DNA of 64,000 nt from Escherichia coli (GTDB taxonomy: Bacteria > Pseudomonadota > Gammaproteobacteria > Enterobacterales > Enterobacteriaceae): assembly GCF_003334405.1 (NCBI RefSeq), contig NZ_QOWM01000016.1, one strand, 5' to 3'. Shown here piece by piece: positions 3,141 to 63,799 of the stretch. Each line of letters opens with the position of its first letter. Positions within the stretch are counted from its first letter, which is position 1. A program made the position numbers and the translations under genes. The notes under the pieces are model-generated. The model saw nothing but the letters and a program-made list of their open reading frames with translations, did no database searches and was not told the origin of the DNA.

Positions 3141-3977
3141 ATGACCGTATTACATAGTGTGGATTTTTTTCCGTCTGGTAACGCGTCCGTGGCGATAGAA
3201 CCCCGGCTCCCGCAGGCGGATTTTCCTGAACATCATCATGATTTTCATGAAATTGTGATTGTCGAACATGGCACGGGTATTCATGTGTTTAATGGGCAGC
3301 CCTATACCATCACCGGTGGCACGGTCTGTTTCGTACGCGATCATGATCGGCATCTGTATGAACATACCGATAATCTGTGTCTGACCAATGTGCTGTATCG
3401 CTCGCCGGATCGATTTCAGTTTCTCGCCGGGCTGAATCAGTTGCTGCCACAAGAGCTGGATGGGCAGTATCCGTCTCACTGGCGCGTTAACCACAGCGTA
3501 TTGCAGCAGGTGCGACAGCTGGTTGCACAGATGGAACAGCAGGAAGGGGAAAATGATTTACCCTCGACCGCCAGTCGCGAGATCTTGTTTATGCAATTAC
3601 TGCTCTTGCTGTGTAAAAGCAGTTTGCAGGAGAACCTGGAAAACAGCGCATCACGTCTCAACTTGCTTCTGGCCTGGCTGGAGGACCATTTTGCCGATGA
3701 GGTGAATTGGGATGCCGTGGCGGATCAATTTTCTCTTTCACTGCGTACGCTACATCGGCAGCTTAAGCAGCAAACGGGACTGACGCCTCAGCGATACCTG
3801 AACCGCCTGCGACTGATGAAAGCCCGACATCTGCTACGCCACAGCGAGGCCAGCGTTACTGACATCGCCTATCGCTGTGGATTCAGCGACAGTAACCACT
3901 TTTCGACGCTTTTTCGCCGAGAGTTTAACTGGTCACCGCGTGATATTCGCCAGGGACGGGATGGCTTTCTGCAATAA
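3141..3977 (+). CDS. rhaS: AraC-family activator of rhaBAD and rhaT
   Basis: 278-aa [44 protein letters not shown]..., C-terminal AraC HTH; AGGAGG RBS at 3130..3135. Confidence 0.95.
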
Positions 3978-4050: not shown

Positions 4051-4899
4051 GTGGCGCATCAGTTAAAACTTCTCAAAGATGATTTTTTTGCCAGCGACCA
4101 GCAGGCAGTCGCTGTGGCTGACCGTTATCCGCAAGATGTCTTTGCTGAACATACACATGATTTTTGTGAGCTGGTGATTGTCTGGCGCGGTAATGGCCTG
4201 CATGTACTCAACGATCGCCCTTATCGCATTACCCGTGGCGATCTCTTTTACATTCATGCTGACGATAAACACTCCTACGCTTCCGTTAACGATCTGGTTT
4301 TGCAGAATATTATTTATTGCCCGGAGCGTCTGAAGCTGAATCTTGACTGGCAGGGGGCGATTCCGGGATTTAACGCCAGCGCAGGGCAACCACACTGGCG
4401 CTTAGGTAGCATGGGGATGGCGCAGGCGCGGCAGGTTATCGGTCAGCTTGAGCATGAAAGTAGTCAGCATGTGCCGTTTGCTAACGAAATGGCTGAGTTG
4501 CTGTTCGGGCAGTTGGTGATGTTGCTGAATCGCCATCGTTACACCAGTGATTCGTTGCCGCCAACATCCAGCGAAACGTTGCTGGATAAGCTGATTACCC
4601 GGCTGGCGGCTAGCCTGAAAAGTCCCTTTGCGCTGGATAAATTTTGTGATGAGGCATCGTGCAGTGAGCGCGTTTTGCGTCAGCAATTTCGCCAGCAGAC
4701 TGGAATGACCATCAATCAATATCTGCGACAGGTCAGAGTGTGTCATGCGCAATATCTTCTCCAGCATAGCCGCCTGTTAATCAGTGATATTTCGACCGAA
4801 TGTGGCTTTGAAGATAGTAACTATTTTTCGGTGGTGTTTACCCGGGAAACCGGGATGACGCCCAGCCAGTGGCGTCATCTCAATTCGCAGAAAGATTAA
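4051..4899 (+). CDS. rhaR: AraC-family activator of rhaSR
   Basis: Track ORF 3877..4899 extends upstream into rhaS; the currently accepted 282-aa product starts at GTG 4051 ([13 protein letters not shown]...), an older 312-aa model starts at ATG 3961. AraC-type HTH at the C-terminus. Confidence 0.85.
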
Positions 4900-8911: not shown

Positions 8912-8992
8912 GTAGGCCTGATAAGACGCTATCAGCGTCGCATCAGGCATCCTGCTCAAATGCCGGATGCGGCGTAAACGCCTTATCCTGCC
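8912..8992. repeat. REP/BIME between convergent yiiM and cpxA
   Basis: GTAGGCCTGATAAGACGCTATCAGCGTCGCATCAGGC and a degenerate GCCGGATGCGGCGTAAACGCCTTATCC palindrome. Confidence 0.8.
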
Positions 8993-13976: not shown

Positions 13977-14074
13977 CCTGATGCGCTTCGCTTATCAGGC
14001 CTACATGAATTCTGCAATTTATTGAATTTGCAAACTTTTGTAGGCCGGATAAGGCGTTCGCGCCGCATCCGGCA
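13977..14074. repeat. REP/BIME between pfkA and sbp
   Basis: GCCTGATGCGCTTCGCTTATCAGGCCTAC and GTAGGCCGGATAAGGCGTTCGCGCCGCATCCGGCA; spurious ORF 13959..14156 lies inside. Confidence 0.85.
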
Positions 14075-17719: not shown

Positions 17720-18160
17720 ATGACCATACAGCAATGGTTATTCTCATTTAAAGGGCGTATTGGACGCCGTGATTTCTGGATTTGGATAGGCCTGTGGTTC
17801 GCAGGCATGCTGGTGCTTTTCTCACTGGCGGGTAAGAATCTACTCGATATTCAGACCGCGGCGTTTTGCCTTGTGTGCTTGCTCTGGCCAACAGCGGCAG
17901 TAACTGTTAAGCGCTTGCATGATCGCGGGCGTTCCGGCGCATGGGCATTTCTGATGATTGTGGCGTGGATGCTGCTGGCGGGTAACTGGGCGATTTTACC
18001 GGGTGTCTGGCAATGGGCGGTGGGGCGTTTTGTCCCGACGTTGATTCTGGTGATGATGCTTATCGATCTTGGTGCGTTTGTTGGCACACAAGGCGAAAAT
18101 AAATATGGTAAAGATACTCAGGATGTGAAGTATAAAGCCGACAATAAATCAAGTAATTAA
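17720..18160 (+). CDS. yiiR: DUF805-family inner membrane protein
   Basis: 146-aa hydrophobic ORF, MTIQQWLFSFKGRIGRRDFWIWIGLWFAGMLVLF... Confidence 0.8.
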   Translation: MTIQQWLFSFKGRIGRRDFWIWIGLWFAGMLVLFSLAGKNLLDIQTAAFCLVCLLWPTAAVTVKRLHDRGRSGAWAFLMIVAWMLLAGNWAILPGVWQWAVGRFVPTLILVMMLIDLGAFVGTQGENKYGKDTQDVKYKADNKSSN

Positions 18161-18371
18161 CCTTTAATATATCTCTTACTGCTATTTTTTTCCGGGATTG
18201 TTATTTCCACGATGCAAATGACAATACCCGGAAAATCCTTCTGAACTCTTCACCTTAAGCAATATCAAAAAAAATGGTAATCCATAAGATCATTACTTGT
18301 TTGTTCTTCCCTTAACGGCGCATTATTCTTAAGTCGTAATCGACAGAGAGGCGAATATACAGAGGTGCCCT

Positions 18372-18671
18372 ATGAAAGATGTCGTAGATAAATGCAGTAC
18401 TAAAGGATGTGCGATTGATATCGGTACGGTGATTGATAACGACAACTGTACCAGTAAGTTTTCGCGCTTTTTTGCCACCCGCGAAGAAGCAGAGTCTTTT
18501 ATGACCAAACTGAAAGAGCTTGCCGCCGCTACATCCTCTGCAGATGAAGGGGCCAGCGTGGCCTATAAGATTAAGGATCTGGAGGGGCAAGTTGAGCTTG
18601 ATGCGGCCTTCACTTTCTCATGCCAGGCCGAGATGATTATTTTTGAGTTATCACTGCGTTCGTTAGCTTGA
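18372..18671 (+). CDS. yiiS: small conserved protein of unknown function (UPF0381/DUF406)
   Basis: 99-aa [37 protein letters not shown]... Confidence 0.8.
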
Positions 18672-18697
18672 TGGAGTTGCTTTAGAAGGAGTTAAAC

Positions 18698-19126
18698 ATG
18701 GCTTATAAACACATTGGCGTGGCAATTTCCGGGAATGAAGAAGATGCCTTACTGGTGAATAAAGCCCTGGAGCTCGCCAGACATAATGACGCTCACCTGA
18801 CGTTAATTCATATTGATGATGGCTTAAGCGAGTTGTATCCGGGTATCTACTTCCCTGCAACAGAAGATATTCTTCAATTGTTGAAGAATAAGTCGGATAA
18901 CAAGCTGTATAAACTGACGAAAAATATTCAATGGCCGAAGACAAAACTGCGTATTGAACGCGGAGAAATGCCGGAAACACTGCTGGAAATTATGCAAAAA
19001 GAGCAGTGCGACCTCCTTGTCTGTGGTCATCATCACTCATTTATCAACCGTTTGATGCCGGCATATCGCGGGATGATCAATAAGATGAGTGCGGATTTGC
19101 TCATCGTGCCGTTTATCGATAAGTAA
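18698..19126 (+). CDS. uspD: universal stress protein D
   Basis: 142-aa [43 protein letters not shown]... Confidence 0.85.
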
Positions 19127-19130
19127 CCGC

Positions 19131-19877
19131 TTACCAGTAATGCTCCGCTGTCATATGGCCCGGTCGGCGACGTAAATGTTTCGTCATCTGCCGGGTCTCT
19201 TTCAGCAACTGTTGTGTATCGCGCACCATCTGTGGATTGCCGCACAGCATCACATGGCTGGTTTCTTTATTCATCGGCAGGCCAATCGTGCTTTCCAGTT
19301 CCCCACTTTCAATTAATGCCGGTATCCGTCCGGTGAGCGACCCCGCTGCCGTTTCCCGACTGACCACCGTCTGAATGCGCAGTTTTCCTTCGTAGCGTTT
19401 TTCCAGTTCCTGCATCAGTGGCAAATAGCTTAAGTCGGCGGCATAACGTGCGGCGTGCACCAGGACCAGATTTTTGAAGCGATCTAAATCTTTACCTAGT
19501 TGCAGAATCGATAAATAAGGGCCAATCGCTGTACCGGTTGCCAGCATCCATAGCGTTTCGCAGTGCGGCACTTCATCGAGCACAAAGAATCCTGCCGCTT
19601 CGCTAACCACCTGCACTTCATCGCCTGGTTTCAGTGCCGCCAGTCGTGGGCTTAATTTGCCATCGGGGACGGTGACCAGGTAAAACTCCAGATCGGGATT
19701 ATCGGGCGAGTTTACATAGGAGTAGGCGCGCTGGACGCGTTCGCCGTCGATTTCAAGGCCAAGCTTGGTAAATTGCCCGGCGGTAAACGGAAGCACGGGG
19801 GCGTGAACGGTGAGACTAAACAGGGCGTCGGTCCAGTTCTGCACTTTAGTGACTTTGCCTGTTACCCAATCAGCCAT
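19131..19877 (-). CDS. fpr: flavodoxin/ferredoxin-NADP+ reductase
   Basis: 248-aa ORF, MADWVTGKVTKVQNWTDALFSLTVHAPVLPFTAGQFTKLGLE... Confidence 0.93.
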   Translation of the reverse strand: MADWVTGKVTKVQNWTDALFSLTVHAPVLPFTAGQFTKLGLEIDGERVQRAYSYVNSPDNPDLEFYLVTVPDGKLSPRLAALKPGDEVQVVSEAAGFFVLDEVPHCETLWMLATGTAIGPYLSILQLGKDLDRFKNLVLVHAARYAADLSYLPLMQELEKRYEGKLRIQTVVSRETAAGSLTGRIPALIESGELESTIGLPMNKETSHVMLCGNPQMVRDTQQLLKETRQMTKHLRRRPGHMTAEHYW

Positions 19878-19921
19878 GTTTTTCTCCTGTTTTGATTGAC
19901 TTGCCTTATCTTCGTTCTCCG

Positions 19922-19950
19922 AACAAAAAAATTCCAGTCCCGAAGGACTG
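19922..19950 (-). terminator. Intrinsic terminator at the end of glpFKX
   Basis: Minus-strand hairpin CCAGTCC-TTCG-GGACTGG followed by a run of U (plus-strand A-tract 19924..19930), 24 bp past the glpX stop. Confidence 0.7.
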
Positions 19951-19973
19951 GAAGGCTCAATCGATCAAATCAA

Positions 19974-20984
19974 TCAGAGGATGTGCACCTGCATTTCCGG
20001 GTCTTTGCGATCCAGATAGTGGATGGACTGAATGCGGCGAATGGTGCGTGACTTGCCGCGGATCAGCAGCGTTTCGGTAGTCGCGATATTGCCTTTGCGG
20101 CTAATGCCTTCCAGCAGATCGCCTTTGGTAATACCGGTGGCAGAGAAGATGACGTTATCGCTGCGCGCCATATCGCCCAGGCGCAATACTTTACCGGCTT
20201 CGATGCCCATCGCTTTGCAGCGTGCCAGCTCCTGCTCGCCAATGCGACGATTCTCTTCGTTGTCGCCTTTGACGTCATGACGCGCCAGCAGACGACCGTT
20301 CATGTCGCCATCTAATGCGCGGATCACCGCCGCAGAAACTACGCCTTCCGGCGCGCCACCAATACCGTACAGCACGTCAACTTCGCTGTCTGGCATACAG
20401 GTGAGAATTGAGGCCGCAACGTCGCCGTCCGGAATAGCAAATACGCGTACGCCGAGTTGCTGCATTTCAGCGATAACGGCATCGTGGCGTGGTTTAGCCA
20501 GAATCGTTACCGTCAGTTCGCTCAACGGTTTGCCGAGCGCCGCCGCTACATTGCGCAGGTTATCCGCCAGCGGCAGGTTCAGATCAATGGTGCCTTTGGC
20601 TCCCGGCCCGACAATCAGCTTCTCCATATACATATCCGGCGCATTGAGGAAGCAGCCTTTATCGCCTACTGCCAGCACCGCCAGCGCGTTAGCCTGGCCC
20701 ATCGCCGTCATGCGCGTGCCTTCAATCGGATCAACAGCAATATCTACCGCGTCGCCGCGACCAGTACCGACTTTTTCACCAATGTAGAGCATCGGTGCTT
20801 CGTCGATTTCACCTTCACCAATGACGATGGTGCCGTCAATGTTGACCTGGTTGAGCATAATACGCATGGCGTTTACCGCCGCGCCGTCCGCGGTGTTTTT
20901 ATCGCCGCGTCCTAACCATTTGTAGCCAGCCAGCGCCGCTGATTCGGTGACGCGGGAAAATTCGATGGCAAGTTCTCGTCTCAT
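19974..20984 (-). CDS. glpX: class II fructose-1,6-bisphosphatase
   Basis: Track ORF 19974..21113 trimmed to MRRELAIEFSRVTESAALAGYKWLGRGDKNTADGAAV (336 aa). Confidence 0.93.
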   Translation of the reverse strand: MRRELAIEFSRVTESAALAGYKWLGRGDKNTADGAAVNAMRIMLNQVNIDGTIVIGEGEIDEAPMLYIGEKVGTGRGDAVDIAVDPIEGTRMTAMGQANALAVLAVGDKGCFLNAPDMYMEKLIVGPGAKGTIDLNLPLADNLRNVAAALGKPLSELTVTILAKPRHDAVIAEMQQLGVRVFAIPDGDVAASILTCMPDSEVDVLYGIGGAPEGVVSAAVIRALDGDMNGRLLARHDVKGDNEENRRIGEQELARCKAMGIEAGKVLRLGDMARSDNVIFSATGITKGDLLEGISRKGNIATTETLLIRGKSRTIRRIQSIHYLDRKDPEMQVHIL

Positions 20985-27161: not shown

Positions 27162-27692
27162 TTACGCTTTGTAGCTTAATTCTTCGATGGTGTGGAAATG
27201 GTTGGTATAGATGCAAATGTCGCCTGCAATATCCAACGCCTTTTCAGCAATTTCACGGGCGCTAAGTTCAGTGTTTTCTAACAGCGCGCGCGCCGCAGCC
27301 TGGGCGTAAGGGCCGCCGGAGCCGATAGCAATAAGATCGTTTTCTGGCTGCACCACGTCACCGTTACCGGTGATGATAAGCGATGCAGTTTCATCCGCGA
27401 CTGCCAGCAGTGCTTCAAGTTTGCGCAGCATGCGATCGGTACGCCAGTCTTTTGCCAGCTCAACGGCGGCTTTGACCAGATGGCCCTGATGCATTTCCAG
27501 TTTACGTTCAAACAGTTCGAACAGCGTAAAAGCATCCGCAGTACCGCCCGCAAAGCCCGCGATGACTTTGTCGTTGTACAGACGGCGGACCTTTTTCACG
27601 TTGCCTTTCATTACGGTATTGCCCAACGTGGCCTGACCATCACCAGCGATGACCACATGGCCGTTACGGCGTACGCTTACTATAGTTGTCAC
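27162..27692 (-). CDS. hslV: ATP-dependent protease subunit HslV
   Basis: 176-aa [42 protein letters not shown]...; N-terminal Thr nucleophile after Met removal. Confidence 0.96.
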
Positions 27693-27751
27693 GAGCTGAC
27701 CCCTTGGTTACGAATACAGAGTACAAACCCCGTACAAAAGTACGGGGCATA

Positions 27752-52542: not shown

Positions 52543-52884
52543 ATGGCATACCTGGTGGCAGTAACCGCCTGCGTAAGCGGCGTGGCGCATACTTATATGG
52601 CGGCGGAACGGCTGGAAAAGTTGTGCCTGTTAGAGAAGTGGGGAGTCAGCATTGAAACTCAGGGCGCGCTGGGAACGGAGAATCGTTTAGCGGATGAGGA
52701 TATCCGCCGGGCGGATGTTGCTCTGTTGATTACGGATATCGAGCTTGCCGGTGCCGAGCGATTTGAACATTGCCGCTATGTGCAATGCAGCATCTACGCA
52801 TTCCTGCGTGAGCCGCAGCGGGTAATGAGCGCGGTGCGCAAAGTGCTTTCTGCGCCGCAGCAAACCCATCTTATTCTGGAGTAG
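52543..52884 (+). CDS. frwD: fructose-like PTS IIB-type component
   Basis: Track ORF 52480..52884 trimmed to MAYLVAVTACVSGVAHTYMAAERLEKL (113 aa); paralogous to frwB (same TAC.SGVAHTYMAAE motif). Confidence 0.85.
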   Translation: MAYLVAVTACVSGVAHTYMAAERLEKLCLLEKWGVSIETQGALGTENRLADEDIRRADVALLITDIELAGAERFEHCRYVQCSIYAFLREPQRVMSAVRKVLSAPQQTHLILE

Positions 52885-63683: not shown

Positions 63684-63799
63684 AAAAAAAGCGGATCCTG
63701 GAGATCCGCAAAAGTTCACGTTGGCTTTAGTTATTCGAGTTGAGAAACTCTCGAAACGGGCAGTGACTTCAAGGGTTAAAAGAGGTGCCGCTCCGTTTC
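63684..63799 (-). ncRNA. oxyS: OxyS oxidative-stress small RNA
   Basis: The minus strand reads GAAACGGAGCGGCACCTCTTTTAACCCTTGAAGTCACTGCCCGTTTCGAGAGTTTCTCAACTCGAATAACTAAAGCCAACGTGAACTTTTGCGGATCTCCAGGATCCGCTTTTTTTT, matching the OxyS sequence as I recall it, including the terminal hairpin GCGGATCTCCAGGATCCGC plus U-tract; divergent from oxyR. The 3' end is approximate. Confidence 0.85.

Follow-up and report, generated by a model that had tools for sequence, protein, structure and literature searches.

The convergent uspD-fpr junction of Escherichia coli: overlapping transcripts with 3' ends inside the partner's coding sequence

The uspD-fpr locus

The genes uspD and fpr of Escherichia coli are opposite-strand neighbours that lie tail to tail, as is seen both in the sequence and in the RefSeq annotation, and fpr is a gene that we take to be SoxRS-regulated. 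Both are located within a 64,000-nucleotide stretch of DNA, referred to here as the window, which is collinear with the E. coli K-12 chromosome of strain MG1655 (NC_000913.3), such that a window position equals the NC_000913.3 position minus 4,094,595. In both ER1709 and MG1655, these same two open reading frames carry the names uspD and fpr in RefSeq, which gives a gene order in which yiiR, yiiS and uspD occupy one strand and fpr, glpX, glpK and glpF the opposite strand. The junction consists of the following features:

18698..19126, plus strand: uspD, universal stress protein D, 142 aa, with its stop TAA at 19124-19126 (ORF list, RefSeq)
19127..19130, no strand assigned: spacer CCGC between both stop codons (sequence)
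19131..19877, minus strand: fpr, flavodoxin/ferredoxin-NADP+ reductase, 248 aa (ORF list, RefSeq)

The initial annotation of this DNA had placed 4 bp, CCGC, between the two stop codons, and the sequence and the list of open reading frames bear this out: the stretch across the junction reads GAT AAG TAA CCGC TTA CCA GTA ATG, in which the fpr stop, TAA, is the complement of 19131-19133 (TTA on the plus strand) and closes a protein that ends in ...AEHYW. That one of the stops might be mis-annotated, a circumstance under which the initial annotation would have withdrawn its reading, or that the genes are not truly so close, is vanishingly improbable. Both frames are intact, the RefSeq annotation is concordant, and both proteins have full-length relatives that share their C-termini. 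Fpr is 248 aa long and ends in ...AEHYW* in all 11 sequences compared, which represent 8 genera, and UspD aligns over its full length of 142 residues both in E. albertii and in a relative whose UspD is 85% identical; because the C-terminus of Fpr is invariant and UspD is matched at full length in relatives, both stops look genuine. A 1251-bp query over the locus had a match in each of 5426 complete E. coli genomes, and a 71-bp query centred on the junction, counted when one piece spanned 80% or more of its length with an identity of 95% or higher, had a single-piece match in the same number (5426/5426), the junction layout being identical throughout. Nothing in favour of mis-annotation was found among the open reading frames, the homologues, RefSeq or the complete E. 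coli genomes, and the evidence just listed leads us to exclude it. On the fpr strand, the spacer is GCGG in two E. coli sequences and in the relative with the 85% identical UspD, and GCAG in E. albertii.

On the other side of fpr, glpX is followed by a strong canonical terminator (window 19932-19953, minus strand; a 9-bp stem and then a run of seven T), which is situated 55 bp ahead of the start codon of fpr and has a Term-seq 3' end at MG1655 position 4114522. With this terminator ahead of it, fpr needs a promoter of its own, within the 96-bp gap that separates it from glpX. An Rfam scan of the whole window found no RNA family at the uspD-fpr junction. Elsewhere in the window there were matches to OxyS, the ClpQY (hslVU) promoter element, the L31 leader upstream of rpmE, two naRNA4 and two ES036 (positions 63690-63799, 27690-27747, 32359-32411, 8915-8992, 1-70, 13997-14038 and 33391-33432), all of them expected features of this K-12 region.

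Nine convergent gene pairs were counted from the MG1655 annotation of the 64-kb window, and the distances between their ends are as follows:

frwD/yijO: -14 bp (overlap)
rhaR/rhaT: -4 bp (overlap)
uspD/fpr: +4 bp
yijE/yijF: 26 bp
cdh/tpiA: 54 bp
argH/oxyS: 54 bp
rpmE/yiiX: 60 bp
zapB/rraA: 84 bp
yiiM/cpxA: 105 bp

The gap is 4 bp or less in three of the nine pairs (frwD/yijO, rhaR/rhaT and uspD/fpr). The uspD/fpr gap is not unusual, and a third of these pairs have no space for an intergenic terminator. The coding overlap of rhaR/rhaT is window 4896-4899 (4 bp) and that of frwD/yijO is 52871-52884 (14 bp).

Transcript ends and termination signals

The initial annotation had proposed that the two transcripts extend into each other's coding regions, with 3'-end mapping as the check. 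Published Term-seq data (Adams et al. 2021, eLife, PMC7815308, supplementary file 1) support the proposal: a 3' end of class "antisense uspD" maps to 4113600 on the minus strand (window 19005) and one of class "antisense fpr" to 4113796 on the plus strand (window 19201), each inside the partner gene. The minus-strand end was called in all three growth conditions, with a score of about 50,000 in two entries, which is of the same order as that of the glpX terminator end (PMC7815308). The plus-strand end was called in one condition of the three with a score of 1,132 (PMC7815308), the condition presumably being LB at OD 2.0, going by its place in the supplementary file. Within that condition the end scores are 50,738 for the fpr strand and 1,132 for the uspD strand (PMC7815308), so that the 3'-end signals of the two transcripts are about 45-fold apart. 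The ends delimit three features:

19005..19130, minus strand: fpr 3' UTR, 126 nt (Term-seq end, PMC7815308)
19127..19201, plus strand: uspD 3' UTR, 75 nt (Term-seq end, PMC7815308)
19005..19201, no strand assigned: doubly transcribed stretch, 197 bp (derived from both Term-seq ends)

Since this last stretch lies between the two mapped 3' ends, it is covered by transcripts of both strands. Of the fpr 3' UTR, 122 nt run antisense to uspD (codons 103-142 with the stop), and the last 71 nt of the uspD 3' UTR do so to fpr (codons 226-248 with the stop). The overlap is further supported by the presence of the pair in the RNA-seq-based ExcludonFinder set (PMC12288877) and by the capture of an RNase III-type duplex within it (PMC7373196). 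We take the ends at 19005 and 19201 to be those of full-length fpr and uspD mRNAs, although Term-seq records ends rather than whole molecules, and the end at 19005 may partly be that of a shorter antisense or processed RNA.

The statement of the initial annotation that there is no room for terminators holds for the space between the stops and fails beyond it, as termination signals do exist inside the coding sequence of the partner:

19157..19197, plus strand: imperfect G+C-rich hairpin GGCCCGGUCGGCGACG-UAAAUGUUU-CGUCAUCUGCCGGGUC, within fpr codons 227-241
19198..19203, plus strand: short interrupted U-rich tail UCUUUC, with the Term-seq end 19201 inside it (sequence)
19205 (4113800), plus strand: Rho termination region peak (PMC7815308, suppl. 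2)
19001..19038, minus strand: A/U- and G.U-rich hairpin GAGUGAUGAUGACC...GGUCGCACUGCUC, inside uspD (folding)
18996..19000, minus strand: U5 tract directly after the 19001-19038 hairpin (sequence)
18981 (4113576), minus strand: Rho termination region peak, with bicyclomycin-sensitive read-through (PMC7815308, suppl. 2)

The hairpin at 19157-19197 folds on the plus strand with -22 kcal/mol (z = -3.9; 1 in 200 shuffled sequences did as well), and the same DNA on the fpr strand has a weaker fold of -15.7 kcal/mol. The uspD-strand 3' end at 19201 lies 4 nt past the stem. As features of an intrinsic terminator, the uspD side thus offers a stable hairpin with an end 4 nt later, but the tail is merely UCUUUC and the end is Rho-sensitive as well; the element looks like a weak intrinsic terminator or a stop for exonucleases after Rho termination. 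On the fpr strand, the end at 19005 falls in the 3' arm of the 19001-19038 hairpin, flush with the end of an alternative stem, and an RNA ending there folds with its 3' end flush to the stem, as is expected after exonuclease trimming. Together with the U5 tract, this hairpin is a possible weak intrinsic terminator for fpr. E. coli and E. albertii both have the hairpin, which is weaker in the relative with the 85% identical UspD. They share the U5 tract as well, which is interrupted in another E. coli strain and missing from that relative.

We infer that the hairpins cause the 3' ends. A consensus terminator scan of 18200-20200 found no canonical terminator past either stop; its matches were the glpX terminator and two weak sites with no relation to the Term-seq ends. 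That it picked up neither hairpin, and that the U-tracts are poor, speaks against the hairpins as terminators, although such a scan is uninformative for hairpins as imperfect as these.

Rho acts on both strands, as judged from the published scores for read-through raised by bicyclomycin (PMC7815308). The peak at 4113576 on the minus strand has a Rho score of 3.65 (p = 3.2e-18) and lies 24 nt from the end at 19005, and the peak at 4113800 on the plus strand has a score of 2.82 (p = 1.2e-5) and lies 4 nt from the end at 19201 (PMC7815308). Because the fpr end is flush with a stem and its Rho score is strong, Rho termination slightly downstream followed by trimming would account for it. The C/G ratio of the read-through RNAs is just modestly above 1 on both strands, and base composition was set aside as an indicator of rut sites, being indecisive at such values.

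The RNA duplex

A sense/antisense duplex forms in the cell at a low level and is cleaved by RNase III. Table S3 of Huang et al. 2020 (mBio, PMC7373196), which lists p19-captured products with a predicted RNase III cleavage signature, has an entry labelled fpr whose perfectly paired strands are UCAUAUGGCCCGGUCGGCGACG (502 reads) and UCGCCGACCGGGCCAUAUGACA (120 reads):

19149..19172, no strand assigned: 22-bp RNA duplex with 2-nt 3' overhangs (p19 capture in vivo, PMC7373196, Table S3)

The duplex lies inside the overlap of the uspD and fpr transcripts. Its abundance is 5.9 and 1.4 RPM, among 1,200-2,000 such duplexes per dataset (PMC7373196). The same study reports that 3' (convergent) overlaps have, on average, a 37.9-fold lower density of p19-captured dsRNA than 5' (divergent) ones, and that protein level bears no clear relation to cleavage by RNase III (PMC7373196). 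In the one entry found for Fpr in the proteomics of an rnc (RNase III) mutant, the protein stands at 0.65-fold, a modest drop, with adjusted p values of 0.04-0.14 in three replicates (PMC7373196); this is not a clear null result, and repression of fpr by RNase III would predict a change in the other direction.

Neighbours of fpr in other genera

The fpr locus was retrieved from seven sources outside Escherichia by way of Fpr homologues and exact-protein look-ups: Salmonella, a multispecies Enterobacteriaceae protein, Klebsiella michiganensis, K. aerogenes, Kosakonia, Pseudescherichia and Trabulsiella. Each of the seven has yiiR (a DUF805 gene), and not uspD, as the convergent neighbour of fpr, and tblastn detected neither yiiS nor uspD at 2.5 kb or less from fpr in these loci. 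The fpr and yiiR stops are directly adjacent, with 0 bp between them (TGA or TAA, then TCA), in six of the seven sources. The positions are as follows:

3245-3250 of loci L009-L014: adjacent fpr/yiiR stop codons (sequence)
3248-3353 of locus L008: Salmonella fpr-yiiR spacer, 106 bp (sequence)

The Salmonella spacer is REP-like by eye (...CGCCTTATCCGACCTCCGTAGG...) and also has a CCCGG/CCGGG stem. It gave no Rfam match at E <= 0.1, and we do not assign it to the REP elements on its appearance.

The arrangement of yiiS-uspD with a 4-bp gap to fpr was found in E. coli, in E. albertii and in the relative with the 85% identical UspD, and a UspD search of genome contigs had two Escherichia loci among the matches listed. 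Because fpr abuts yiiR outside Escherichia, the yiiS-uspD segment (about 970 bp, window 18161-19130) looks like an insertion in the Escherichia lineage. The tight junction at the 3' end of fpr would thus predate uspD at this place, which argues against a tightness that evolved to couple uspD and fpr.

The C-terminus of YiiR varies by genus (DVKYR*, DVRWKAES* and DVKFKAEP*, with DVKYKADNKSSN* in E. coli; window 18130-18160 compared with L008-L014), and the end of yiiR has undergone repeated remodelling at this junction. We considered the CCGC spacer as a relic of the last codon of yiiR, which reads TAC CGC TGA in several genera, and dropped this reading because YiiR ends differently in Salmonella and Klebsiella, which are closer relatives. 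A Salmonella assembly (locus L004, 2501-2901) has an incomplete UspD-like gene (65% identical) in other surroundings, with an Asp/Glu racemase gene upstream, no yiiS, and the contig ending inside the UspD-like gene. One E. coli-like contig (L007, from GCA_015356505.1) was left out of the comparisons as it looks low-quality: there are small indels in fpr and its neighbours, e.g., a CG missing in the hairpin arm, and several genes are fragmented.

What is new here, and a modest addition, is that fpr keeps a tail-to-tail junction of 0-4 bp with different partners in different genera.

Conservation of the hairpin within fpr

The hairpin embedded in fpr is kept in the 11 sequences from 8 genera, with 89% of cells paired. 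Codons 226-239 (window 19161-19202), which take in most of the hairpin before the mapped uspD end, have the lowest synonymous diversity of the 235 fourteen-codon windows of fpr in these 11 sequences, at 0.333 against a mean of 0.444, with a small margin over the next windows. Covariation across the 11 sequences amounted to one double change, which was not above shuffles (222/500). In the stem arms, two rare Arg codons, CGG229 and CGA238, have largely been kept across these sequences. They were rejected as a sign of selection on the stem, since a CGG at R174, outside the stem, is as conserved as CGA238 (8/11 each).

It is possible, though we hold it with considerable doubt, that the hairpin (codons 227-241) is a selected dual-use element, which would encode part of Fpr and also serve the opposite strand as a terminator or 3'-end stabiliser. 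Such an element may serve any gene that converges on fpr, i.e., yiiR in most Enterobacteriaceae and uspD in Escherichia. If true, it would explain how fpr tolerates a junction of 0-4 bp across the family and how a yiiS-uspD segment that brought no terminator along could be accommodated. The evidence from synonymous diversity, pairing and rare codons is suggestive only; without significant covariation, coding constraint alone could explain the conservation.

Interpretation

Published data show where the 3' ends lie, that read-through is sensitive to bicyclomycin and that a duplex is captured, and the arrangement that they describe is probably a passive, compact tail-to-tail junction, in which each gene has its 3'-end signals within the coding sequence of its partner and the effect on expression is small and one-sided. 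The uspD transcript would run 75 nt beyond its stop and end at 19201, after the hairpin embedded in fpr and its short U-rich tail, and the fpr transcript would run 126 nt beyond its stop and end at 19005, at the base of a weak stem-loop in uspD, most likely through Rho-dependent termination slightly downstream and subsequent 3' trimming. Rho would restrict further read-through on both strands, leaving two RNAs that are complementary over about 197 nt, part of which would form a duplex in the cell and be cut by RNase III. Any effect on expression would come mainly from the far more abundant fpr RNA acting on uspD and not the reverse. As to origin, yiiS-uspD was probably inserted into an older, gapless fpr-yiiR junction, and the arrangement is probably not an evolved switch. 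Two points weigh on this reading: the uspD-strand end is weak, and the small size of the effect is deduced, whereas the authors of ExcludonFinder treat the pair as a functional excludon (PMC12288877).

The latter view deserves to be weighed closely. In a true excludon, induction of fpr (e.g., by SoxS upon superoxide) would send polymerases and antisense RNA into uspD, lowering uspD by transcriptional interference and RNase III, with the reverse in stationary phase, so that expression of the two genes would be mutually exclusive in a physiologically meaningful manner. The pair is among the 165 convergent excludons of MG1655 given by ExcludonFinder (Sanmartin et al., NAR 2025, PMC12288877), whose core set is defined by detection in at least 50% of 58 MG1655 transcriptomes, and it is named there as an example in which both genes are tied to oxidative stress and regarded as functionally linked. 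The transcript overlap (PMC7815308) and the RNase III-type duplex (PMC7373196) are documented, and excludon pairs as a class are near-exclusive in single-cell data (PMC12288877). Set against this, a full-text literature search found no paper beyond PMC12288877 that treats the uspD-fpr pair and no experiment specific to it; the captured duplex is scarce, RNase III has no clear link to protein levels and convergent overlaps are the ones poor in dsRNA (PMC7373196). The pairing of uspD with fpr is moreover confined to Escherichia among the genera sampled, and since yiiR abuts fpr equally tightly elsewhere, the tightness is independent of uspD. We therefore consider a switch of this kind unlikely. 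A very unlikely account is that of bidirectional termination driven by collision (Ju 2019; Wang 2022), in which one hairpin element pauses both polymerases and the 3' ends on the two strands are set by head-on collisions, with neither Rho nor a canonical terminator defining them. Such termination has been described for hundreds of E. coli genes (10.1101/2022.10.23.513370), uspD and fpr are convergent and lack canonical terminators, and the 19157-19197 element folds on both strands with the energies given above. The mapped ends are, however, 197 bp apart, each by a different structure instead of flanking one hairpin, and a minus-strand stop at the hairpin within fpr would truncate fpr ahead of its stop codon. 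Both ends are bicyclomycin-sensitive, whereas the class is described as Rho-independent (10.1101/2022.10.23.513370), and with 3'-end signals that differ about 45-fold, collisions should be rare for polymerases that transcribe fpr.

If the junction is the passive one that we favour, it matters little beyond book-keeping, as a documented example of 3'-end signals that lie in the coding sequence of a neighbour, of read-through capped by Rho and of little dsRNA. Were the overlap to tune uspD upon induction of fpr, it would link two oxidative-stress functions, and the changing partners of fpr could be of use in asking whether selection acts on terminators that lie within coding sequence.

Comparison with known systems

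The excludon concept is said to come from work on Listeria by Sesto et al. 2013. At uspD-fpr, the features of a convergent excludon are present to the following extent: the genes are opposite-strand neighbours, the transcript of at least one extends over that of the other (Term-seq, ExcludonFinder), and an RNase III-processed duplex occurs at low abundance (p19 capture). Like the convergent excludons of ExcludonFinder (PMC12288877), the pair has a 3' overlap and a short intergenic distance; it differs in that the overlap covers coding sequence on both sides, with essentially no intergenic DNA. The functional hallmark of an excludon is mutually exclusive expression, and the likeness of uspD-fpr to the class lies in the overlap and the duplex. 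The transcript overlap as such is already published and is ordinary for E. coli. The closest parallels in the window are rhaR/rhaT and frwD/yijO, which likewise have no intergenic space for terminators and are likewise in the ExcludonFinder list; their coding sequences overlap, whereas those of uspD and fpr are 4 bp short of meeting.

With overlapping bidirectional terminators (Ju et al. 2019; Wang et al. 2022) the pair shares its convergent orientation, the lack of canonical terminators and a hairpin near the junction. The hairpin at uspD-fpr is inside coding sequence, as opposed to between genes (Ju 2019), and in place of one hairpin with close, Rho-independent ends there are two structures whose ends are widely spaced and both Rho-sensitive.

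The pair also resembles antisense read-through that is limited by Rho, which was reportedly described by Peters et al. 2012. Among the Rho sites of Adams et al. 2021, antisense sites are the largest class, at 51.5% (PMC7815308). As in that class (PMC7815308), untranslated antisense RNA continues past the stops of uspD and fpr and meets bicyclomycin-sensitive regions; we see no notable difference, and the pair fits the class.
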